From: a virus
Length of the DNA stretch: 64,000 nucleotides
Strand: one strand, 5' to 3'
IMG/VR virus record: IMGVR_UViG_3300042896_000657
Location: 32,001 to 96,000 of that record
Shown in pieces: positions 3,113 through 63,300 of the stretch (positions are counted from its first letter, which is position 1; every line of letters begins with the position of its first letter). The notes below the pieces were generated by a model, which did no database searches, had not been told where the DNA came from, and saw only the letters and a list, made by a program, of their open reading frames with translations. Both the position numbers and the translations under genes were made by a program.

Positions 3113-4738
3113 ATGAGTAAAATTATTAGTTTCGATAGAGAAGCAAAAGAAAAATTACAAGCTGGTATTGATAAAGTAAATAAAGCAGTATCAGTAACAA
3201 TGGGTCCTTATGGACGTAATGTATTAATTGAAAAAGAACATGGTCAAGTAACATCAACAAAAGATGGTGTAACGGTTGCTAAATCTATTACATTAGAAGA
3301 TTCTATTGAAAATATGGCAGCAACAGTAATTAAACAAGCAGCATCTAAAACAGTTGATGCAGCGGGAGATGGTACTACAACTTCAACAGTATTAGCTCAC
3401 GCTATTGCTTCTGGAGCATTAAGTACTACATCTTACCCATCAACAAATGCTACTCAGGTAAAACGTGGTATAGAGGATGCTGTAAAAGAAGTGGTTGCTG
3501 AATTAAAAAAGATGTCTATTGACATTACTGATGAAAAGCAAATTAAACAAATTGCTACATTATCAGCAAATGGAGATGAAGAAATTGGAAATCTAGTTAC
3601 CGAAGCATTAGATAGAGTTGGACGTGATGGTGTAGTTACAGTAGAGGAATCTCGTACTGGAGAAACTTCATTAGAAGTAGTTGAAGGTTTACAATTTGAT
3701 AGGGGATATAAATCTCCATATTTTGTAACTGACAATAGCACGATGCAAGCCGTATTAAATGACGCTTTAATATTGTTATTCAACGGTAGAATCAGTGCTG
3801 TTAAGGACTTATTGCCTCTATTAGAATCCGTTTCTCAACAAAATAAATCACTATTGATTGTTGCTGAGGAATTAGATGGAGAAGCATTAGCTACTCTAAT
3901 TGTAAATAAAATGCGTGGATCACTTAAAGTAGCTGCTGTAAAAGCACCTGACTTTGGAGAACGCAGATTGCATATTCTAGAGGATATGGCAACTTTAACT
4001 GGAGGTCAAGTTGTATCAACTGATAAAGGTATGAAGTTGGATAAATTCAATACAGATTGGTTTGGTAATGCACGTGTTGTAACTGTAGGTAAAGAAACTA
4101 CTACAATTGTTGATGGTAAAGGAGATGCAGATATAATTGAGACACGTATTCTAGATTTAAAACAACAATTAGATAATTCAAAATCACCATATGAAGTTGA
4201 AAAACTACAAGAACGTTTAGCTAAAATGGTAGGTGGAGTTGCAATTATTAATGTTGGTGGTGGTACTGAAATTGAAATGAAAGAGAAAAAAGACCGTTTA
4301 GACGATGCTTTGCAAGCTACAAAAGCTGCTCTTGAAGAAGGTATTCTACCAGGTGCTGGTGTTGCATTATTACATGCTAGAAAATCTATTAATTTAAAAG
4401 GTGAAAATGATAAAGTAAAAGGTGCACAAATTGTATTCCAAGCTTGTGCTACTCCATTTAAACAAATTTTAAATAATGCTGGAGAAGATCCTCAAGAATG
4501 GTGGGATAAAATTTACAATAATCATTTCTCTAGTATGGTACCAGAATTATCAACTGGAGAAGTAACAGATGCTTTCAAATCAGGTATTATTGATCCTACT
4601 AAAGTGGTACGTTGCGCTTTAGAAAATGCAGCAGCGGCCGCAGTAACACTATTAATGACTGAATGTGTAATATATGATAAACCTGAGGATAAAAAATCCA
4701 ATGGTGATGGAGTAGATATGTCACAATTTGGAATGTAA
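3113..4738 (+). CDS. groEL: Chaperonin GroEL
   Basis: TMGPYGRNV, TKDGVTVAK, AGDGTTT, GLQFDRGY, KAPDFGERR, GIIDPTKV. Confidence 0.98.
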   Translation: MSKIISFDREAKEKLQAGIDKVNKAVSVTMGPYGRNVLIEKEHGQVTSTKDGVTVAKSITLEDSIENMAATVIKQAASKTVDAAGDGTTTSTVLAHAIASGALSTTSYPSTNATQVKRGIEDAVKEVVAELKKMSIDITDEKQIKQIATLSANGDEEIGNLVTEALDRVGRDGVVTVEESRTGETSLEVVEGLQFDRGYKSPYFVTDNSTMQAVLNDALILLFNGRISAVKDLLPLLESVSQQNKSLLIVAEELDGEALATLIVNKMRGSLKVAAVKAPDFGERRLHILEDMATLTGGQVVSTDKGMKLDKFNTDWFGNARVVTVGKETTTIVDGKGDADIIETRILDLKQQLDNSKSPYEVEKLQERLAKMVGGVAIINVGGGTEIEMKEKKDRLDDALQATKAALEEGILPGAGVALLHARKSINLKGENDKVKGAQIVFQACATPFKQILNNAGEDPQEWWDKIYNNHFSSMVPELSTGEVTDAFKSGIIDPTKVVRCALENAAAAAVTLLMTECVIYDKPEDKKSNGDGVDMSQFGM

Positions 4739-32073: not shown

Positions 32074-32562
32074 GGGGCAGTCAGGAATTGACTGGGCAAA
32101 AAAAGTATAAAACAACAAGCAGTGCGATGAATGGTATAGCACTATAAAATGTACGTTCGAACAATAAATGACAACAAGTCAACTTTCTCTTTCGAAGATG
32201 CAATGTCTTTCGTAGGAGCAGATTTCGCAGTAGCTGCTTAATCTATTCAGGTGGTAACCAACCTAGGAACAGAATGATTACAAACAGAGCCACGTTCAGA
32301 ATGCTGCTCTAATACAAGTGAATTCGTCACAGTTGCTGGTAACAATGTTAAAATAGGAACCTGATGGTGGATTAGACCGCTATAAACGGTCGGCCCTTAC
32401 TGATCAATATAAGTTAGTAGAATAACGCTGCTGCTAGTATTCTTTAAATTACGTGGGAAGATGCAGCTCTCCCAATGTAGCTAACCATTATAGATCTAAG
32501 CTTGTAATAAATTGTTTTATGGCTGCTGCAACAGGACAAGGGTTCGAATCCCTTCTGCTCCA
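32074..32562 (+). ncRNA. ssrA: tmRNA
   Basis: 5' GGGGCAG..GGAATTGAC; 3' T arm plus CTGCTCCA with G3-U70; tag frame 32170-32241 reading (A)DNKSTFSFEDAMSFVGADFAVAA*. Confidence 0.92.
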
Positions 32563-32566
32563 CTAT

Positions 32567-32644: not shown

Positions 32645-32714
32645 GCCGTGGGTTGAGGTTTAACAACATTCTCTCATAAGGAATGTCAATTCGGTTCGAT
32701 ACCGAAACACGGTA
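32645..32714 (+). tRNA. tRNA with CAT anticodon (elongator Met or Ile2), atypical D arm
   Basis: CATTCT-ctCATaa-GGAATG; T arm TTCGG-TTCGATA-CCGAA. Confidence 0.7.
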
Positions 32715-35404: not shown

Positions 35405-36283
35405 TTGTTATCCATTTAAGTTACATTCGACGCGAAACAGTCCGGCTGCCGATAAGATTGTAGGTTGATAAATAACACTCGGCGGCCTATAGTCGTTAAA
35501 TAAACCGTGAAAGCGGTATAAAGTGAATTAGTTTGACTGAACTAGTTTGCGCATCGTGAGATGTTAAGTAGGCAAGCAGGATATCATTTATCCTTTAGTA
35601 CCGAGGGTGACACTGTAGGGAAAGTGGATAGATGATTAGGCGATGTGGGTCGTCTGATTGAGCTCGGAAGAGCAATAAGAATAACCTGTAGAATATATGC
35701 AAGAAATATACCTCCAAGTATGTAATTGCGTTATTCAATATAAGAGAAATCTTAAAATCGAAAGGTAAGATGATGTACAGGTGGTGCTGTTATTGTCCTC
35801 AAAATTAATCTACCAAGGTTTTTATTGAGAAGATTTCTTAAAGTATGGAGGTAGGGATACTTCAGAGAGTAGTCGAGTATTTTGTTGTTCAAAAGATAAC
35901 AAAGCTTAGGGTAAGCCACTACTTTCATAATCCATAAGTCTAAACTAAATTTGCTACTATGATGCAATATCTAAAATCAAATTAAGCTTAAGCGCTTACC
36001 AGCTACGGACGAAAGATGCTTACATAGTACTGGGTTGTCCAGTGCCATTTAAGACCGCAAGTCAAGAATGATTCTTTTGAAAGACTTATAGTACCGCAAG
36101 TACGAATCAGGCTCGCAAGCTTGAATAGGGGTGAGTAGGAGGAGAGTAGTCCAATACAAGTAGCTCTAAGAGTGGTTCACTTAAATAACCAGCATTGTCA
36201 GAGTAGGGATCAAAAGTTCCTGGATAAGAGAAGAATAAATAATGTCTCAAAAGCTTTGACGTCAAGACTGTAATCTCAGGTCT
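35405..36283 (+). ncRNA. Large structured ncRNA, probably GOLLD-class
   Basis: About 880 nt with no credible ORF; GC-enriched; many GNRA-capped hairpins (GCAA, GAAA); own promoter motif and boxA; embedded among phage tRNAs; ends approximate. Confidence 0.6.
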
Positions 36284-41038: not shown

Positions 41039-41935
41039 ATGAGCAAAATAAGTCCAGATAAATTAATGATTAGTAGCGACTTCTACTCAGTACAGGGTGA
41101 AGGTCGATCAACAGGAGTACCATCATATTTCATTCGCTTAGGCCTATGTAATTTAACTTGTGGTTTTTCACGAACATTTGGAAATCAATTATTAAAAGAT
41201 AAATCATTAGAGGATGGAGAAATCTTCAAAGGTGATTTAGAATTAGAAGGTAAAGCTAGCTGGACTTGTGATAGTACAAGTCAGTGGTTATGGAGAGGTG
41301 TTGATAAAGACTTTCAATACCTAATTGATCAATGGAAAGAACAAGGTATTTATCAAGATATTTTAGATGGAGTAATTCATTTGATTTGGACAGGTGGAGA
41401 ACCAACAATTAAAGGTCATCAAGTATCTATTGTTAATTTTCATAAATACTGGAGTGAATTAGAGAAAGATAATATACAGACGAAAGTAGAATTATATGAT
41501 GGTTTAACTGGTAAGATATGGACGTATTATAAACCAATAAATGTATTTAATGAAATTGAAACTAATGGTACTATATATATTGAAGATGATTTATTTTATC
41601 AATTAGACCAAATCAATTGCTCCCCAAAATTAACAAATTCAGGTATGGCTGAAAAACAACGTATTGTCCCTGCAGCTATTAAACGTATAATGGAACATGG
41701 AAATTACCAATTTAAATTTGTTATATCAACCGAAGATGATGTTAAGGAATTATTCCGTGACTTTGTAGAACCATTTAATATACCATTGAAAAACGTAATT
41801 TGTATGCCTGGATTAGATGATCAAGCAGATTTTCATGAGCGCACTCAATTCTGTTTAGAAATGGGAAAAAAATACAAATTTACAGCCTTAACACGCTTAC
41901 ATATCTCAGCATGGAATAAAACGCTTAATGTATAA
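41039..41935 (+). CDS. queE: 7-carboxy-7-deazaguanine synthase-like radical SAM enzyme
   Basis: FYSVQGEG..G.PSYFIRL, CNLTC..WTCD, TGGEP, ETNGT, CSPK, RLH. Confidence 0.8.
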   Translation: MSKISPDKLMISSDFYSVQGEGRSTGVPSYFIRLGLCNLTCGFSRTFGNQLLKDKSLEDGEIFKGDLELEGKASWTCDSTSQWLWRGVDKDFQYLIDQWKEQGIYQDILDGVIHLIWTGGEPTIKGHQVSIVNFHKYWSELEKDNIQTKVELYDGLTGKIWTYYKPINVFNEIETNGTIYIEDDLFYQLDQINCSPKLTNSGMAEKQRIVPAAIKRIMEHGNYQFKFVISTEDDVKELFRDFVEPFNIPLKNVICMPGLDDQADFHERTQFCLEMGKKYKFTALTRLHISAWNKTLNV

Positions 41936-43306: not shown

Positions 43307-43778
43307 TATTTCCCAAAGTATAGTCTCAGAATCTATGATTCAAGAATTAAGAATTGAATTATCTAATGATAAAAGATATAAATTAGCATTTCATGAATTA
43401 GAAAAGGAAATACAATCTTTACCATTCAGAACAACTGAAGATTTAATTAATATATCTAAATTAACATCTAAAATTAAAAATGATTTTAATATTATTTAAT
43501 ATTGGATTGTCATAGTTTGTTTCGTATCTTGATGGTATGAAAAAAGCAATAAAAATACAAGCTGAACAAATTGGAGATAAATGGTATGTAGTTGGAGATG
43601 GTTTAAAAATGCCTGTCCCTTCTCAAGAACATGCTATTGTTATATCTAATTATTTGATGACTGCTGAAGTGCCTGATCCTAATTTTAATCCTGGTAGAAG
43701 GAAAAAATCAGTGTAGTGTCACAATCCACCTCGTATATTAACGTATTAGATAATTAAAACAAATAAAACAAAAAGGTT

Positions 43779-44564
43779 ATGAAAAATCAAACATTAACAT
43801 TAGATCAAGTTAAAGAAAAATGTCCAACTGCATTTACAATGCAAGCTTCACCTGCAACCACTACTGAACGTTACACTCACATTCCAACATCAGTAGTAAT
43901 TGAGGATTTAATGAAATTAGGTTGGCAACCAACCGAGGCTAAACAAGTTAAGGCTCGTAAGAATATAGGTTATCAAAAACACTTAATCACATTTACTAAT
44001 CCTAATATTATGATTAAAGGTGAAGGTGGTGATGATGTTCAACCAACAGTATTACTAACTAATTCACATGATGGAAAAAATGCATTCCATTTTCAAGTTG
44101 GATTAATTAGATTCGTTTGTGAGAATGGATTAGTAATTAGTGATCAAGATTTCGCTAAAGTTTCAATTCGTCACACTGGTTATTCATTTGAGGAATTACA
44201 GGTAAAGATTGCTGGTGTAATTGAGAAATTACCAAATTTAGTAGAAAAAATTAATATATTTAAAACTACTGAATTAAGTGATGAACAAGTAATTGAATTT
44301 GCAACTAAAGCATCACAACTTCGTTTCAATAACGATAAATCAGAAACTGTAGTTGATATTAATGGATTATTAGTAGTTGAACGTGTTGAGGATGAAGGTA
44401 ATGATTTATGGTCTGTTTTCAATCGTGTTCAGGAAAAATTGATTAATGGTAATTTTAGCTATGGAAGAAAAAACCGTAAAGCTAGGTCAATTAAAAATTT
44501 CACTCAAGATTTAAATATTAATAAAGATCTTTGGGAAGTTGCTAATGACTATGTATTAGTATAA
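43779..44564 (+). CDS. DUF932/DUF945 family protein
   Basis: YTHIPT, NSHDG, GLIRFVCENGL, LWSVFNRVQE. Confidence 0.85.
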   Translation: MKNQTLTLDQVKEKCPTAFTMQASPATTTERYTHIPTSVVIEDLMKLGWQPTEAKQVKARKNIGYQKHLITFTNPNIMIKGEGGDDVQPTVLLTNSHDGKNAFHFQVGLIRFVCENGLVISDQDFAKVSIRHTGYSFEELQVKIAGVIEKLPNLVEKINIFKTTELSDEQVIEFATKASQLRFNNDKSETVVDINGLLVVERVEDEGNDLWSVFNRVQEKLINGNFSYGRKNRKARSIKNFTQDLNINKDLWEVANDYVLV

Positions 44565-44745: not shown

Positions 44746-44852
44746 AGTCAGGTGGCGGAATGGTAGACGCTAGAAGTGAATAGATAAGTAAGTGTATTGT
44801 CGCTTAAACAACTTTGCTACTTATCATACAGGTTCGAATCCTGTCCTGACCA
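44746..44852 (+). ncRNA. tRNA-like scaffold RNA, copy 4
   Basis: Conserved ends; core closed by GATAAGTA/TACTTATC. Confidence 0.75.
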
Positions 44853-44861
44853 CACAAAAAA

Positions 44862-44961
44862 TGTGTTGTTCCCTTGAGAAAGGAAATATAAAGATTAGTG
44901 ACATTACTTGAATTATGGAAAACATAATCGTACACTACAACACAGAGGACTTCTCATCCTC
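44862..44961 (+). ncRNA. Structured RNA with possible kissing loops between scaffold copies 4 and 5
   Basis: TGTGTTG/CAACACA closing stem; loop TGAGAA complementary to loop TTCTCA of GAGGA-CTTCTCA-TCCTC. Confidence 0.5.
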
Positions 44962-44966
44962 AACAT

Positions 44967-45089
44967 AGTCAGGTGGCGGAATGGTAGACGCTAATGAATT
45001 GTCCTGAGATGAGACGATGCCTAACACCAGCAGAGACTTAATGGTGTCCGAGAAGATTAGGTGTACAGGTTCGAATCCTGTCCTGACTA
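44967..45089 (+). ncRNA. tRNA-like scaffold RNA, copy 5
   Basis: Conserved ends; core stems GCCTAA/TTAGGT and ACACCA/TGGTGT. Confidence 0.75.
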
Positions 45090-45102
45090 CAAAAAATAAA
45101 TT

Positions 45103-45216
45103 ATGAAAATTAGATTACGGACACAAAAAGAAAAGTTTTTTATAGGAAGTGTTATCATATTAGTAATTGCTGGTTTGAGTGTAGTAGTAACAATATTCTA
45201 TTCTATATTAAAATAA
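45103..45216 (+). CDS. 37-aa single-TM peptide between scaffold copies 5 and 6
   Basis: MKIRLRTQKEKFFIGSVIILVIAGLSVVVTIFYSILK*. Confidence 0.5.
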   Translation: MKIRLRTQKEKFFIGSVIILVIAGLSVVVTIFYSILK

Positions 45217-45222
45217 AAAAAT

Positions 45223-45380
45223 AGTCAGGTGGCGAAATTGGTAGACGCCTAATAAACTAACAAGTGAGGTAATTAGCACTTGGTTACGATGGGGAAAAAT
45301 TCAAAGTAATGTTTTTTAGAAAAGTGAAAAGTAAGAAGTACAATGAAAATCATTTACAGGTTCGAATCCTGTTCTGACTA
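45223..45380 (+). ncRNA. tRNA-like scaffold RNA, copy 6
   Basis: Conserved ends; longest core; CAAGTG/CACTTG stem. Confidence 0.75.
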
Positions 45381-51733: not shown

Positions 51734-52852
51734 ATGGAAAATAATAATTCAGTTTGCTACGTTGCAAAAATAAATGAAATTAAATCTATTGAGGGTGCTG
51801 ATAATATTGAATTAGCAGTAATTGGAGGATGGAATTGTATTACTAAAAAAGGAGAATACAAAGTAGATGATTTAGTAATTATAGCTACTACTGATGCTAT
51901 TATCCCTCAAAATCTATCAGACGCAATGAATGTAACTAATTACTTACGTAAAGGTGGACGTGTACGTACTGTTAAATTAAAAGGAGTATATAGTGAATGT
52001 TTAATCATCCCTAATAAATTTATATTTACAGAATATTACAAAGAAGGAAGCGATATGATGGATAAATTAAGTATCCATAAATACGAACCACCGGTTAAAC
52101 AAATTCAATTAGCATCAGGCCGTAAGATTAAATATAAGGATAATCCTAACTTCCATGTATATTATAAGTTCCCTAATTTAAAGAATGTTGATGGAATGTT
52201 TACTGTAAATGATATGGTAGAAATCACCCGTAAGATTCATGGTACTAATGCTCGTTATGGTATTGTAAAGAAAACTAAATTATCATTATTAGATAAAATT
52301 AAAAAATTCTTTGGAAATAAATGGATTGAATATGAATTTATTGTTGGATCCCATAATGTTGAAAAAGGATCTGAATCACAAGGATTTTATGATACTAACG
52401 TTTGGTATGATATTGAAAAGAAATATAATATTAAATCTAAATTATGGAATTGGGTTAGAAGACATAACCCTATAGATATAGGTGAAGGTATAGTATTATA
52501 TGGAGAAATATATGGTCCAGGTATCCAAAAAAATTATGATTATGGATTAGATGAGATTAAATTTGCTGGGTTTGATATAAAGATGAATGGAGAATATCTA
52601 AATGTAATCAGAGCTAATTTTATAATTACTCAACCCTTATCACTACCATATGTTGAAATATTACATAGAGGTGTATGGTCTCAAGAGATACAAGATAAAT
52701 TCACATTCAATAACTTCATTCCAGGAACTAAAGTACCTGAAGAAGGAATTGTAATTAAACATGTGTCTGGTGAACGCCAAAGAATAGCTAAAGTCATTAA
52801 TCCAGACTATAGTATATATAGTGAAAAACATAATGTTGGGGATAGCCACTAA
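51734..52852 (+). CDS. RNA ligase, DRB0094-like, with N-terminal OB/tRNA-binding-like domain
   Basis: IEGADNIEL; ligase motifs KIHGTN, GEIYG, FDI, EGIVI, AKVI. Confidence 0.88.
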   Translation: MENNNSVCYVAKINEIKSIEGADNIELAVIGGWNCITKKGEYKVDDLVIIATTDAIIPQNLSDAMNVTNYLRKGGRVRTVKLKGVYSECLIIPNKFIFTEYYKEGSDMMDKLSIHKYEPPVKQIQLASGRKIKYKDNPNFHVYYKFPNLKNVDGMFTVNDMVEITRKIHGTNARYGIVKKTKLSLLDKIKKFFGNKWIEYEFIVGSHNVEKGSESQGFYDTNVWYDIEKKYNIKSKLWNWVRRHNPIDIGEGIVLYGEIYGPGIQKNYDYGLDEIKFAGFDIKMNGEYLNVIRANFIITQPLSLPYVEILHRGVWSQEIQDKFTFNNFIPGTKVPEEGIVIKHVSGERQRIAKVINPDYSIYSEKHNVGDSH

Positions 52853-56712: not shown

Positions 56713-58424
56713 GTTTTGTCCAAATCAATTTTATATATTAATGGTATGGAAAAAGATATGAAAACAAAAATCGAAGAATTAAGAGAATCAATTGGTAAAA
56801 TAATGTCACACAACTACAGCCCAATACTTAGAGCAAAGTTAGTTAAAGTGAATAAAGTAACTTGTGTACTTGAAGTAACTAAAGGTGAATATGTTAAAGA
56901 TAAAGATTATACTATAGGTATGAGATTTAAAGATAATGTAAGCCATACTTGGAATGCTTTATATTATTAGTCAGAATCCCTTTAGTACATTAATGATATA
57001 GATAATTAAAACAAAACGATATGACAAACGAACAAAGCCAAATTTTAAGTAAATTAATTGATGCTAAATGGGATTCAGACCACCTAGAATCTTATCACGA
57101 ACGTGATATTGCACGTCAGAATTATTATAATTTAAAACGTGAATTAGTTGAATCAATGGGATTAGATGAATTTATAGAATTTATGAATATGGGAGCAAAA
57201 ATGTTCGCTCCGGCACAATCCTAATTGTATATTAACGTATAAGATAAAACGATATGAAAACAAATAGAGTAAAAGCATTTGATTTAAGAGAAGAATTAGA
57301 AAATAATCATGGAGTAACTCCAGAAAGTTTATTAAACTATTTAATGGATTGTTGGATGTCAGGGGATGATTCATTACAAGCAGTAGAGGATTTTAAGAAT
57401 GATGTTATAAATAATTGATTAATCAGAATCCTAATCGTATATTAACGTATTAGATAATTAAAAAACAAAGATATGAAATTTATTAGATTAACAAGCCTTA
57501 AAGATTCAAAACCAGTATTTATTAATCCAGACTTTATAGGACATATGTTTAGAGTTCCTGAAAAAATGAGTTATGGAAGTGTTGATGAAGTAGAACATAC
57601 AACTGTGGGTGTCACAACTCATAATAATGGAGGATTTAAAGTTATAGAAGATGTAAAGCAAATTCTAAAACTGATTGAATTGTCAGAATCTCACTCGTAC
57701 ATTAACGTATAAGATAATTAAAACAAAAACGATATGAAAAAATTAGATTACGACACATTAGTAATGATTGAAGGTTTAATAGATTTAAGAGATTTAGATT
57801 TATTTAAAAACGCTTTAGAAAATATTACAAACGATTTAGAAATGGAAGGTTTTGAATTAAGTGATGTCAAAGCATATTTTCAATTAATATTAAATGAAAT
57901 ATTAGGAGATCAATAGTCAGAATCCACCTCGTATATTAATGGTATAGATAATTAAAAAAAAAACGATATGAAAAAATTTAACGGTTTCGAAAGTTACAAT
58001 CTAGTAACAGGTTTAGAATTATTAAGAGAATCTTATTTAGCTGATATTAAAGCAGCTACTGATAAAGGCAAACATCACATATTTAGTGAAAGATTTGCAA
58101 ATGGTACTATTGATGATTTAATTAAGATTGTTAAAGATAATACTAAAAAGGATAAATACGTATTTAGTCATGAATGTACTCAATATAAAGAAGTTTGATA
58201 AAAAACAATAGATTATGTGGGGATTAAATTGTAAATATTATACTAAAACATTTAATTCATTAGATGAATTAATTGAGGATATTATGAGTTAGGAATGGAT
58301 CCAAATTATGAAATAGTCAGAAATGGAAAAATAACCAGCGAAATGGCTATTGATTTTATTGTATTTTAATAGTCAAAATCCAACTCGTATATTAACGTAT
58401 AAATAAATAATTAAAAATAAAGAT

Positions 58425-58784
58425 ATGACAAAAGAAGAAACATTACACACATTAAGAACCATGAATTTAGTTGGTTCAGTTTCATTAGGACTTGATAGTG
58501 TTATAGCATTGGTTGAGAGTTTAGATTTAATTGAAGTAACTACAGTTAGTGATGAATCTAAAAGTTTAGTAATTAATCAATTAATTGAAGAGTTAGATAA
58601 TGATAACATAGGAGATTTTATGTTAATGCCATCTTCTAATCAAATAATGGATTGTATTGATGATTTTGAAGTTAATATATATGATAAAAGAATTGAACTT
58701 GAAGAAATTTATATTGATGAATATAAATTAGCAGAGTTAATTCAAGATGGTGTGAAAAAATGGTTGAATGATAGATTGTCCTAA
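58425..58784 (+). CDS. Acidic hypothetical early protein
   Basis: 119-aa ORF behind a promoter repeat. Confidence 0.7.
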   Translation: MTKEETLHTLRTMNLVGSVSLGLDSVIALVESLDLIEVTTVSDESKSLVINQLIEELDNDNIGDFMLMPSSNQIMDCIDDFEVNIYDKRIELEEIYIDEYKLAELIQDGVKKWLNDRLS

Positions 58785-58990
58785 ATGCGAAGGCTCAGGC
58801 TTTCGCTCTGTAGAATCATCCAGCACATATAATGATATAGAATACAATAAACCTAATATACAGGTACCATGTATTGCCTGTAAAGGTGCTCGTCAAGTTA
58901 CTAAATTGAAGGCATTTCATATTAATAAGAAATACAAATAGTCACAATCCTAATCATACATTGACGGTATAGATAATTAAAACAAACGAT

Positions 58991-59275
58991 ATGAACAGAG
59001 AACTATTTTTAGAAAGTACATTAAGCCAAATTTCACAAGTTTATTCAGGCAAAAATCATAATTGTAGATGTGGTTGTGCAGGATCTTATACTGCAACTTC
59101 ATTTATGGATGAACCTAGAGATGATATTAATGATAAGTTAGTAGAAAGAAGATTAAAGAAAGCGAAAGCATTAATTTTAAATGGTGCTAATGTTGATTAT
59201 GCTGAAACTTATGTTAATGTTGAAACTGGAGATAATAGAGCTTTGACATTCTATTTTGATGAAGTAAGAGCTTAG
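58991..59275 (+). CDS. Hypothetical early protein with CRCGC motif
   Basis: YSGK..CRCGCAG. Confidence 0.7.
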   Translation: MNRELFLESTLSQISQVYSGKNHNCRCGCAGSYTATSFMDEPRDDINDKLVERRLKKAKALILNGANVDYAETYVNVETGDNRALTFYFDEVRA

Positions 59276-59317
59276 TCACAATCTCTCTCGTATATTAATG
59301 GTATAATAAGAAACGAT

Positions 59318-59617
59318 ATGAAAAAAACAAATAAATCAGCAGACGGAACATCATTCCACAACACAATGATTAAAACCACAATTGGTGAATTAGTAAGAGT
59401 ATTAGGTGAACCAACTTATCAACAAAATACAGGTAAAGATAAAGTGAATGTAGAATGGGTTTGTGAAACTATTGATGGTAATGTAGTGACAATCTATGAT
59501 TGGAAAGAATATATTACACTAAGTGAAAATGAAGAAATATTATTTCATTTGGGTGGTCACAGTTTAATCCATACATTGGATGGTAAGGATGAATTATTAA
59601 GATTATTAGAAAAATAG
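59318..59617 (+). CDS. Conserved phage hypothetical protein
   Basis: LGEP..DKVNVEW..TIYDWK..FHLGG. Confidence 0.7.
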   Translation: MKKTNKSADGTSFHNTMIKTTIGELVRVLGEPTYQQNTGKDKVNVEWVCETIDGNVVTIYDWKEYITLSENEEILFHLGGHSLIHTLDGKDELLRLLEK

Positions 59618-59690
59618 GGTTATGTGTTGTTGTTCAGGATACATAAATGCAAAAGTGAACATGGCGACTCGGAAAGACGAGTAACAATAT

Positions 59691-59831
59691 AGTCAGGTGG
59701 TGAAATTGGTAGACACGCTAATGTAGGCATCTTTAAGATGGACGATTGTACTCCGCAGGTTCACGTTAGTTTATTCTAAAGAGATATGAGTACACTTAAT
59801 AGAATTACAGGTTCGAATCCTGTCCTGACTA
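59691..59831 (+). ncRNA. tRNA-like scaffold RNA, copy 7
   Basis: AGTCAGGTGGTGAAATTGGTAGACAC (compensatory D-stem change GTG/CAC)..ACAGGTTCGAATCCTGTCCTGACTA. Confidence 0.75.
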
Positions 59832-59926
59832 CAGCAAATTAGAAGTGTCGCAATACGCGTTTCAATCTAATTGATAGACGTATCAATGAAATATGTTCGG
59901 AGGTGAAAATCCTTAGCTTCTAAAAT

Positions 59927-60037
59927 AGTCAGGTGGCGCAATTGGTAGCCAAAAAGGGATGTTGAAGGTAGTAGTAATACTCCGCCTCGAACAAGTGTAG
60001 GCGACTTTTACAGGTTCGAGTCCTGTCCTGACTACCA
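59927..60037 (+). ncRNA. tRNA-like scaffold RNA, copy 8 (encoded CCA end)
   Basis: Conserved ends, finishing CCTGACT-A-CCA. Confidence 0.75.
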
Positions 60038-60082
60038 GGTCGGTTGTAAGTGACATCCCAGAAGTTATGGAACTTTCAAATT

Positions 60083-60188
60083 AGTCAGGTGGCGGAATGG
60101 TAGACGCTATCTAAAAGATCATATGAAAGGGTGATATAAGACTGAAACGAATAAACCCAATCTACAGGTTCGAGTCCTGTCCTGACTA
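60083..60188 (+). ncRNA. tRNA-like scaffold RNA, copy 9
   Basis: Conserved ends; unique core. Confidence 0.75.
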
Positions 60189-60189
60189 C

Positions 60190-60345
60190 AACGCGTTTCA
60201 TATCCGCGTTACAAACGACGAAAGGTCTTCATATCACCTTAGTCACGATGACTTAGTACATGCACCGTTTCATATCCGGTTTGAGGTTGGAAAAGTCATT
60301 TATTTTAATTATCTAAAGCACCTAAGCCGCTCTCGCGGCTTTTGG
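60190..60345 (+). ncRNA. Candidate sRNA with three hairpins displaying YTTCATATC loops, ending in a terminator-like hairpin
   Basis: AACGCG-TTTCATATC-CGCGTT; AAGGT-CTTCATATC-ACCTT; ACCG-TTTCATATC-CGGT; AAGCCGC-TCTC-GCGGCTT-TT. Confidence 0.65.
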
Positions 60346-63300
60346 TGTTGGATTTAACGCATAACACCGTTTATTCAATGGTGTTCTGTCATAATCACCA
60401 TCGTACATTGACGGTATAGATAATTAAAACAAACAAAGATATGAAACTATTAACATTCCCAATCGCGCAATCAAAAAAATCAATTTCAATAATTGTAAAT
60501 TCAAACAAATTAAAATCTGAAGTAAAGATACTATATCCAAACAAAATAATTGTTGATTTAGTTGATTTATTAGTTATTGAAAAAATGTTGGATCGTAATT
60601 ACTTAAACTATAGATAATCACAATCCACCTCGTACATTAACGTATAAGATATGAATGATATGAAAACAATACAAATTACACAAGATGAAATCCGAATGGC
60701 TACAAGGCCTAATGTTTATAGAAGTAAAAAACATTATACACGTAAATCTAAACATAAAACATTATAAATAAAGATATGGAATTAACAGAACAACAAAAAC
60801 AAACAGTATTAGATATTTTATCATTTGCTGATGGTGAGGATATGGAGGAAATAATTGATAGATCTACATTTAAAGATTATTTAACAAGATCATTAATTAT
60901 GGATTGTATAGATGATATAGATTTAAAATATTACTTATCTGAACGTGATGAATTAATTAAAATCTTAAAAAATAGATAAATATGTTTGAAGAACAAGTAT
61001 TTTGGAAAGATGGAGTTGATGGTGAATTTAAGGGTGGAATATTCATTAGAGCATTTGATTTAGTAAAGTTTCTAGAGAAAGTCGAAGCTGATAGTGAAGG
61101 TGGTGAAGTTGTTGGATTAAAGTTTGATGGCAATAATCTAGAGATAATCGTTAAGTCAGAATCCTAATCGTACATTGACGGTATAGATAAAAAGATATGA
61201 ACATAGAAAAAGTAAAGCAAGCCGTAGAATTACAAAAACAAATGAATACTGATATTGATGTATTTGGATGTACTAGTGAGTATAATTGTAAAATGGTAGA
61301 GCGCTTAGTTGATAATATGAGCGATGAAGAAGGCGATTTATTTATAGAATTAATGAATGGATAATCACAATCCCCCTCGTACATTGACAGTATAGATAAA
61401 AAGATATGAATATGACCCAAGAAGAAATTTACCAAGCACAACAAGATCACAAGGAATACCAGAGGTTGATCAACACGGTTGAAATATTAACTCAAGCAGA
61501 ATATGAATTCTGTAAGGCATGGGATGATGAGGAAACTTGGAAATACCTATTCGATTTAACTGGTGGTAGATGGTTAAACACTAACGTGTATAGTGAGGCT
61601 GAGCATCACGATCATATCTATAGAATGGAATGTGGCTTGTAATGTCACAATCCATTCAGTATATTAACGTATTAGATAATTAGATAAGATATGAAACAAA
61701 ATCCAATTAATGTAAGTGAATTAAATGAAGATAGATATGAAATTATTAATAATTTAGTTAATATTGAATTAGTTAAAAAATTTATTAATGATGTCGAAGC
61801 GTTAGAAATTGATTTAATGAAATCAAATATCCAAGCAAAAGAAATATATCAATATTTGTTAACAATAATGGTTAATCAATGTTAGAATAGTCAGAATCAC
61901 CATCGTACATTAACGTATTAGATAATTAAAACAAAAACGATATGATCACAAAAACACAATTAAAAGCCGGATTACAATTCAGGTACAAAACAATGAAATA
62001 CACACTTAAAGGTGAAGAAGATCAATATTATATTATTGGAGGTGGTTTAATGGGTTATGTAGGTAATGTAGAATCAATAGGAACCAAGTCATTTACATTA
62101 TATACCTATGTAATGGGTAAAGCAGTTAAGGTAAAGGTTAATTATAGTGATTGTGAGTTGGTGGTTGAATAACCCCAATTCACCTCGTACATTAACGGTA
62201 TAGATAATTAAAACGATATGAAAAACGAAATCAATAATATTAGTATTTGTGAATTAATGGATATCATCTTTCCTGGTTATTGGGACAAGCAACTATACAC
62301 TCAGATGTCTTATGATGATGAATGTAAAGCAGTGGGTGAATGGTGTAGGATTAATAATTATGTTCTTTATGAAAAATGTAATGAAGATTACTTTGAGTGG
62401 GAAGCATTCCAACTAGCCACTACTGGTAGATATGATGGGGTGGTATTAAGTAACTTAAGTTAAATGAGTTGCCTGTCAGAATCATAATCGTACATTGACG
62501 GTATAGATAATTAAAACAAATAAGATATGAACAAGCAAACACTTTCAAAATTAATCGAAATCACATTAGCAGACACTAATGAGTTATTTAAAAACAAAAC
62601 CGAATCAGAGGCTTATATAATTGGATACCTCCAAGGTACACTAAAAACGATTCAAAAAGAATTAAATGAAGGTTTATTTTACGGTATAGAAAAATAAGAT
62701 ATGACAAAGACAGAACGCAACAAAACAATCAACAAATTAGTCTACAAATATGCTGAATCATTAGGCTATGAGGTGGATATGAGTGAGATAGATGTTAATT
62801 TCATCCCCGAATCAGGTAATATGGATGATTGTATTGAATATAGAAGATCATCACACTCAGTGGCTGCCTATAATTGGGCATGTGCAAAAACATTGAATGA
62901 TGAAAAGTTGATTGAGGATTATATTGATGATGTGAGTGTGTTAAGTGATGATGAATTAGCTGATCAAATGCGTGCTGTACAAAAATAGGCGCATCGTACA
63001 AAAAAGGTGCGATTTGTAAAAAAGGAGTCATCGCTAGCGGCCCGCTAATGGGTCGCGTGCGTTCCTCTCCCATGGCAATTGCGGTCCATCGATGGTGCGC
63101 GTGTTTGTAAAAAACACCAGGTGTATTCTCAACGCAACAACAACCTCCAACCATCGACAGTATATACGCATATACCTCCATAAATCAAATCCAAATTTCA
63201 AAATAACCCCTTTTGGACCACTTTGCGCAATCCGCAATTCAAACTCTTGAACGATTTTTTTGTCTAAAAACAAGTATATACGAAAAATGTGGCTTGGTCA

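Follow-up and report, generated by a model that had tools for sequence, protein, structure and literature searches.

The stretch of DNA analysed here, called the window throughout, is 64,000 nucleotides long and corresponds to bases 32001-96000 of a 113,980-base IMG/VR virus contig with an estimated completeness of 67% and a G+C content of 28.7%. It holds 20 tRNA genes, and 112 of its 122 picked ORFs lie on the + strand. The leaders of these ORFs are 84% A+T, and an SD-like core was found upstream of just six of the 122, which argues that translation in this phage does not rely on Shine-Dalgarno pairing. Searches with Rfam models located, besides tRNAs, a full-length GOLLD RNA (35865-36282; 262 bits) and a tmRNA (32074-32565; 64.5 bits) within the phage tRNA array. 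Between tRNA-Arg and tRNA-Pro, at 32666-32686, there is a 6-bp hairpin (ACATTC/GAATGT, loop TCTCATAAG) that looks like the CAU anticodon arm of a tRNA uncalled by ARAGORN and Rfam. Protein matches in the window include an RNA ligase (phrog_968, 51734-52852), a GroEL-like chaperonin (phrog_5725, 3113-4738) and a QueE-like radical SAM domain (phrog_2076, 41039-41935).

The window also contains nine tRNA-like scaffolds. The acceptor stem (7 bp), a D arm of the Leu type, the T arm and A73 are retained in each, whereas the anticodon and variable arms have given way to 40-80 nt of unrelated sequence. Directly behind the ninth copy lies the module that is the subject of this report:

60083-60189, + strand: tRNA-Leu-like scaffold copy 9, with 7-bp acceptor, D arm, T arm and A73; a cargo of ~55 nt replaces the anticodon and variable arms
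60190-60210, + strand: hairpin 1, 6-bp stem AACGCG/CGCGTT, loop TTTCATATC = UUUCAUAUC; loop P(unpaired) 0.96
60222-60240, + strand: hairpin 2, 5-bp stem AAGGT/ACCTT, loop CTTCATATC = CUUCAUAUC; loop P(unpaired) 0.97
60264-60280, + strand: hairpin 3, 4-bp stem ACCG/CGGT, loop TTTCATATC = UUUCAUAUC; loop P(unpaired) 0.78
60281-60323, + strand: A/U-rich spacer from the last seed hairpin to the terminator; counterpart in relatives UUUCUUUU
60324-60341, extending to 60349 with its T-rich tail, + strand: intrinsic terminator and putative RNA 3' end; 7-bp stem with five G-C pairs

The three hairpins are as a first-pass annotation of this DNA had described them: their stems are unrelated to one another, entirely Watson-Crick and G+C-rich within an A+T-rich genome, and all three share the 9-nt loop YUUCAUAUC. 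In folding of the + strand, hairpins 1 and 2 are present in the minimum-energy structure and hairpin 3 in the centroid. The terminator-like hairpin that had been noticed after hairpin 3 was recovered by a + strand scan (60324-60341, with a T-rich tail). The 8-mer TTCATATC occurs 26 times in the window, against 7.05 copies expected, a count reached in none of 100 shuffles; none of the remaining 23 window copies has a flanking stem of at least 4 pairs, and a scan of the whole 114-kb contig returned no further copy with such a stem.

Rfam covariance models, including C4 (RF01695) and tRNA (RF00005), gave no match at 60083-60349 at E values up to 1, and BLAST of the locus against 50,697 phage records gave none either. 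A sigma-70 promoter scan near the module yielded nothing convincing, and a literature search for this hairpin element found no description of it.

Conserved loops on changing stems

The feature is real and conserved. In about 20 other viral or metagenome contigs, a hairpin with a covarying stem and the loop core UUCAUA-W-C stands right after a scaffold and before a terminator, in a layout that runs from the scaffold 3' end through 0-9 nt, the hairpin and a U-rich stretch to a strong intrinsic terminator, with the same promoter type. The usual form in these contigs is a single hairpin with the loop YTTCATAAC. Across relatives, modules carry one or two hairpins, compared with three in the window, so that the multivalent, three-loop RNA proposed at first pass describes the window and not the family as a whole.

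We aligned 14 distinct hairpins, three of them from the window, one from L472 and ten from other loci. Seven loop positions never vary (T9, T10, C11, A12, T13, A14 and C16), which leaves variation at positions 8 (C/T) and 15 (A/T) only. In the stems, 89% of cells are paired and five of the six pairs show changes on both sides, a result equalled in 0 of 500 shuffles, while slid controls collapse.

L529 is a metagenome contig that closely resembles the window. The two are almost identical between hairpin 3 and the following gene, the terminator sequence nearly so, and one A-U pair of hairpin 3 has become G.U in L529. Further upstream, the L529 scaffold holds a different cargo, and a single hairpin, whose 7-bp stem is new but whose loop is unchanged, takes the place of hairpins 1 and 2, for a total of two hairpins. 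Stem G.U pairs are present in L246, L247 and L248 as well as in L529, and are valid on the + strand only; the lack of G-U pairs remarked on at first pass thus holds for the three stems of the window but does not carry over to its relatives. The new stem with a kept loop, the covarying stems and the G.U pairs argue that selection maintains the loop on display and requires that there be a stem, and that it acts at the level of RNA and on the + strand. The earlier proposal of selection on the loop, drawn from identical loops on different stems, is therefore strengthened by the stem replacement in L529 and by the invariant loop core and covarying stems of the relatives.

The same G.U pairs bear on a suggestion, also made at first pass, that a transcript of the minus strand presents GAUAUGAAA and acts as a decoy for a start-region-binding factor. 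Within the window this is compatible with the folding, as Watson-Crick stems form on either strand and the two strands give folds of equal stability. In the relatives, however, the G.U pairs turn into C.A mismatches on the minus strand; moreover, no minus-strand terminator was found at the module when one was looked for, and the surrounding genes are overwhelmingly on the + strand (112 of 122 ORFs). We consider such a decoy very improbable, and a + strand transcript of the module is favoured by the relatives' G.U pairs together with the orientation of the terminator and of the genes.

A few apparent leads were set aside. L088 was rejected as a family member because it is a simple repeat, and, among the matches listed by loose pattern scans, most were due to chance. 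Two MAG contigs from the genome-contig scan both lack the hairpins and gave no clue to the host. In relatives, one scaffold, then the CAU hairpin and then a terminator come after a DUF932 (PF06067) gene. The window has a DUF932 homologue at 43779-44564, followed by scaffolds 4-6 (44746-45380) without a hairpin, which indicates that the module has moved; DUF932, linked to the module in relatives and unlinked in the window, was accordingly rejected as its partner. In G001 (locus L492), a close relative of the window, the reverse strand carries at ~2635-2667, between the DUF932 gene and the next scaffold, an 8-bp hairpin ATAAGGTA/TACCTTGT with the loop TTTCATATA, and no counterpart of this hairpin was found in the window.

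Loop sequence and start context

The candidate targets surround the module:

56900-62800, + strand: block of small ORFs, candidate targets, most with their own promoter-like repeat and a GAT-ATG start
57251-57259, 57470-57478, 57731-57739, 57965-57973, 59315-59323, 60438-60446, 61688-61696 and 62215-62223, + strand: exact complements of the 9-nt loop (sequence match)
60402-60446, + strand: promoter-like repeat, then a short leader rich in A, then the GATATGAAA start of the following small ORF (60441-60617); one of ~14 such units

In the 56.9-62.8 kb block, each of ~14 small ORFs is preceded by a promoter-like repeat of ~45 nt (GTCAGAATCC, 4 variable bases, CGTAYATT, 5 bases, TATAGATAAT; also found at 43732 and 52875) and then by a short A-rich leader and GAT-ATG. 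The promoter core CGTATATT...GTATAAAT is common to ~20 other phage contigs, and its spacing fits neither the sigma-70 nor the Bacteroidota consensus. The loop complements that had been listed at ATGs of the block (GATATGAA(A) sites) are real, and all eight exact sites match at 9/9 positions. Seven of the 15 called ORFs in the block have this 9/9 complement at their start, compared with 0 of 107 ORF starts in the rest of the window; the remaining exact site, that of ATG 57254, belongs to an ORF outside the 15 called.

These counts go some way towards the earlier claim that the RNA recognises the AUG of a whole gene class. The specificity is thin, however, as 29 of the 107 other window ORFs match 7-8 contiguous nt of the loop, a consequence of TATGAAA being a common start, with AUGAAA the commonest of all, and of a CAU loop complementing AUG by definition. 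Discrimination between classes rests on 1-2 nt, or about 3 kcal/mol, the computed duplex energy being -7.7 kcal/mol for the cognate class and -4.5 for the other. A predicted loop/start duplex of 6-9 A/U-rich base pairs at -7.7 kcal/mol is weak, and a chaperone may be required. A second gene class in the window has GGTT-ATG starts (43-54 kb), in some cases behind the same promoter; no CATAAC hairpin that would match this GTT-ATG class was found in the 114-kb contig (~67% of the genome).

Whether the loop tracks the start context in related phages was the test put forward by the first-pass annotation itself, and it does. Starts were defined as ORF starts behind the shared promoter core, collapsed to unique 24-mers. 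In phages with ...CATAAC loops (17 loci), ATG is preceded by GTT at 86 of 164 starts and by GAT at 7 of 164, while in those with ...CATATC loops GAT precedes 25 of 30 starts and GTT 1 of 30. The CATATC set is made up of the window, its relatives G001 (the contig of L139, whose end falls before the hairpin locus) and L529, and the separate L472/L534 lineage, whose hairpin stem is TACAGGA/TCCTGTA. The leaders are ~85% A, and only three positions stand out in the CATAAC and CATATC sets, respectively: -3 (G, 65% and 87%), -2 (T, 59%, and A, 87%) and -1 (T, 73% and 97%). Joined to the ATG, these three positions are complementary to C-A-U-A-W-C, the six bases with which the loop ends. The gene that directly follows the module lacks the GTT in several A-type relatives.

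The lineages with the U-type loop share an extended promoter, so that the switch in loop and start context was probably one evolutionary event, and covariation resting on a probable single switch is weak on its own. Given a change at that loop position, a complementary base would arise by chance in about one third of cases. No third type of loop and start context, which would represent a second independent switch, was found in the viral contigs or among the ~540 loci searched. The stronger argument, in our view, is that in both clades an invariant 9-nt loop appears as the exact complement of the only conserved translation signal. What the window contributes to this picture is the GAT-type loop, the matched switch of loop and start context, an increase to three loops, and the arguments drawn from G.U pairs and from the turnover of stems.

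The resemblance of the loop to a CAU anticodon loop, pointed out at first pass, is also real, and it overlaps the antisense reading rather than opposing it. Taken by itself, it would make the hairpins mimics of an anticodon stem-loop, copies of a CAU (Met or Ile2) loop (Y32-U33-CAU-A37-W38) that serve as decoy or ligand for an anticodon nuclease of host defence, for MetRS, for TilS or for the ribosomal P site, with the complementarity to starts as a by-product. The inner seven bases, UUCAUAW, do follow anticodon-loop rules (Y32, U33, purine 37) and are invariant except for W; UCAUAAC is common to the A-type loop and the phage's own tRNA-Met; the hairpins stand behind tRNA-like RNAs that lack an anticodon arm; and among the phage's genes is one for an RNA ligase of a type that serves in tRNA repair. 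However, all 14 aligned hairpins have a 9-nt loop and not the 7-nt loop of an anticodon arm, the outer loop bases are C.C or U.C throughout, without a 31-39 pair in any of them, and the stems run from 4 to 7 bp where an anticodon stem has 5. Mimicry of a fixed host tRNA would not predict that the A/U change at loop position 8 tracks the base at -2, nor would it explain the invariant last C of the loop, which is complementary to the unusual G at -3. On balance we regard pure mimicry as unlikely.

An identical loop on variable stems is at the same time the classic signature of a hairpin recognised by a protein, and the loop could be a site for a phage or host protein, for example in boxB/nut-like antitermination before a terminator or as a coat-protein-like operator or sponge. 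The constant position of the module directly upstream of an intrinsic terminator, which fits that of lambda boxB/nut, and its copy number of 1 to 3 are in keeping with this. Yet no partner protein is evident, the DUF932 gene found upstream in relatives being unlinked to the module in the window, and the density is no higher than one or two sites per 10-15 kb. The 9/9 complement to one conserved translation signal and the matched switch would both have to be coincidence, and a sponge of the CsrB/RsmZ type is further disfavoured in that the + strand loops are the complement of the start region and not a same-sense copy of it. We assign a low probability to a protein site.

The scaffold as a presumed processing handle

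Scaffold 9 is presumed to be a processing handle that carries the hairpin RNA as its 3' trailer. The scaffold 3' end is present in more than 120 viral contigs, and in ~20 contigs the hairpin begins 1-2 nt past the discriminator base of the scaffold, which makes release of the trailer from the tRNA-like copy plausible. A tRNA-like cut at this point would leave a trailer in which a 5' hairpin is followed by an A/U-rich spacer and then by a terminator, the customary plan of bacterial sRNAs.

Two start-like segments, CAUAUGAAA and GAUAUAAGA, lie in the cargo of the window's scaffold 9 (60108-60165), and this cargo shows complementarity of ~30 nt to hairpins 1-2 (60193-60255). The computed cargo/hairpin duplex has an energy of -28.8 kcal/mol, reached in 0 of 300 shuffles, and the minimum free energy of the unprocessed 270-nt precursor is -74.4 kcal/mol with the cargo pairing versus -67.3 kcal/mol for the modular fold. 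Such pairing in the precursor could mask the loops of hairpins 1-2.

This raises the alternative that pairing is confined to the transcript itself, the loop meeting either the start of an ORF on its own mRNA (3'UTR to 5' end) or the start-like segments of the scaffold 9 cargo, and that no trans regulon exists. Besides the strong duplex in the window, the arrangement in relatives is suggestive, where the module would form the 3' end of a DUF932 transcript whose start is GTT-ATG. But at least six unrelated cargos occupy the scaffolds that precede the hairpin across other phages, and the cargo of L261/L372, although orthologous to that of scaffold 9, is mismatched to its own hairpin, with which it pairs weakly in L261 (-12.2 kcal/mol). 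In addition, the start motif is common to dozens of genes and not to a single one. We find pairing solely in cis distinctly unlikely, and it is in any case a variant of the same chemistry. Cargo pairing was also rejected as a general cause of loop conservation, given the unrelated cargos and the failure of the orthologous L261 cargo to track its loop. A 'latch' or sponge formed by the scaffold 9 cargo is therefore at most a local addition that is specific to the window.

Several other features of the scaffolds were observed in passing. At loci L126-L245, the scaffold 3' end often lies 12-20 nt before an ORF start (e.g. ...CTGACTAC, ~14 A/T-rich bases, GTTATG), and scaffold processing may create short-leader mRNAs in such phages. 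A small recurrent hairpin motif, GACRGC-NN-GGAAAGAC-NN-GC, is often found just upstream of the next scaffold (L157, L160, L188, L196, L229 and L230; L472 at 760-790). Finally, at least 15 contigs (L237, L494-L516) have another conserved structured RNA straight after the scaffold, which starts with ACGTTTCGG-TTCATCA-CCGAA, is longer than 100 nt and is unrelated to the CAU hairpins.

A candidate RNA reader of start sites

Since the loop and the start region each differ at one matching position in related phages, the RNA probably pairs with those starts and controls their translation. Our main reading, to which we give a probability of roughly one half, is that the hairpin RNA is an sRNA made from a tRNA trailer, whose U-turn loops pair with G-W-U-AUG in a phage almost without Shine-Dalgarno sites. 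Transcribed from the + strand and ending at the intrinsic terminator, 60190-60349 would be the 3' trailer of scaffold 9, and we infer that tRNA-like cutting of the scaffold sets it free as an RNA of ~160 nt. Its loops begin with UUCA, the YUNR U-turn signature, and by analogy with anticodon loops and antisense recognition loops they would stack so as to expose CAUAUC. YUNR U-turn loops are known to speed antisense pairing in hok/Sok and pIP501 RNAIII (PMC6562991). The loops of those RNAs likewise begin Y-U-N-R (UUCA here, where the U-turn is predicted from sequence), but they are cis-encoded and have long complementarity.

The CAUAUC so exposed is complementary to GAUAUG, the -3 to +3 region common to the small promoter-proximal ORFs at 56.9-62.8 kb. 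In a phage almost without Shine-Dalgarno sequences, the start-codon region would be the sole common handle on the mRNAs of this block. The likeness to a CAU anticodon loop would reflect the same device, one that reads six bases, G-W-U-A-U-G, and not three. Pairing at -3 to +3 would put the RNA in competition with the initiator tRNA and the 30S subunit; because an occupied -3 to +3 region would exclude the initiator tRNA, we think that repression, that is, lower translation of the whole gene class, is the likeliest effect. Judging from their sequences, the unit in relatives lies behind the same promoter class as the presumed targets, often at the 3' end of the DUF932 gene transcript, an arrangement that points to a stable RNA exerting delayed negative feedback and not to a late switch.

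Several known systems share parts of this scheme. The RsaE and RNAIII hairpins of Staphylococcus are multi-loop seed sRNAs of Bacillota. LhrC of Listeria is a multi-loop seed sRNA as well (PMC4132741). All three have a short motif repeated in hairpin loops or single strands that pairs with the initiation region of many mRNAs, and an intrinsic terminator; their C-rich (UCCC) motifs, however, target the Shine-Dalgarno sequence, whereas the loop described here would target the start codon and positions -3 to -1. We found no sequence or Rfam relation between them and the hairpin RNA. The GibS sRNA of Bacteroides thetaiotaomicron is trans-acting in an SD-less setting, pairs across start codons and represses its targets (PMC7366714). 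It differs in having a long (30-50 nt) unstructured 5' seed and few chromosomal targets, in contrast to a repeated 9-nt loop that is phage-encoded and directed at a shared motif.

The c4 antisense RNA of phages P1/P7 (RF01695) is reportedly cut from its precursor by RNase P. Its short loops pair with a ribosome-binding region, differences in the RNA between P1 and P7 are matched by differences in the target, and it controls the icd-ant operon for immunity. Both would thus be phage sRNAs with short loop seeds, matched RNA/target changes and release by a tRNA-processing enzyme (inferred here), but c4 acts on one operon (icd-ant), whereas the candidate target motif here extends across a gene class; a search of window positions 31000-64000 gave no match to RF01695. 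In E. coli, 3'ETS-leuZ is said to be a functional small RNA derived from the 3' trailer of a tRNA-Leu, terminator included. Unlike the hairpin RNA, it sponges other sRNAs, has no repeated loops and does not target start codons. T4 RegA offers a likeness that is functional only: a single protein represses many early phage mRNAs by occupying the AUG region (PMC3014915), where the candidate here is an RNA. By sequence or model, the hairpin RNA is a member of none of these systems (LhrC, GibS, c4, 3'ETS-leuZ or T4 RegA).

More tentatively, the module can be pictured as a phage-private start-site reader made of RNA only. An RNA released from a tRNA-like precursor would bear one to three six-base 'super-anticodons', each a U-turn presenting CAUAWC, and would recognise G-W-U-AUG on every mRNA of its regulon without a Shine-Dalgarno sequence. 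Reader and regulon would have switched together, from GUU to GAU, in an evolvable RNA counterpart of T4 RegA, which in the window would also be checked by a start-site mimic in the neighbouring tRNA-like RNA.

Translational control and the choice of start codons without Shine-Dalgarno pairing are poorly understood in bacteria and phages. The element described here is short, conserved and easily mutated, and is tied by sequence logic to dozens of gene starts. Its natural specificity switch (A/U in the loop, U/A at -2) provides a testable model of regulon-wide control at the AUG. Should the pairing idea be wrong, the conserved loop would still mark an unrecognised RNA-protein or tRNA-mimicry system. 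If it is right, the module might be a compact orthogonal translational switch, and a function would be at hand for part of the widespread tRNA-Leu-like scaffold RNAs of uncultured phages.
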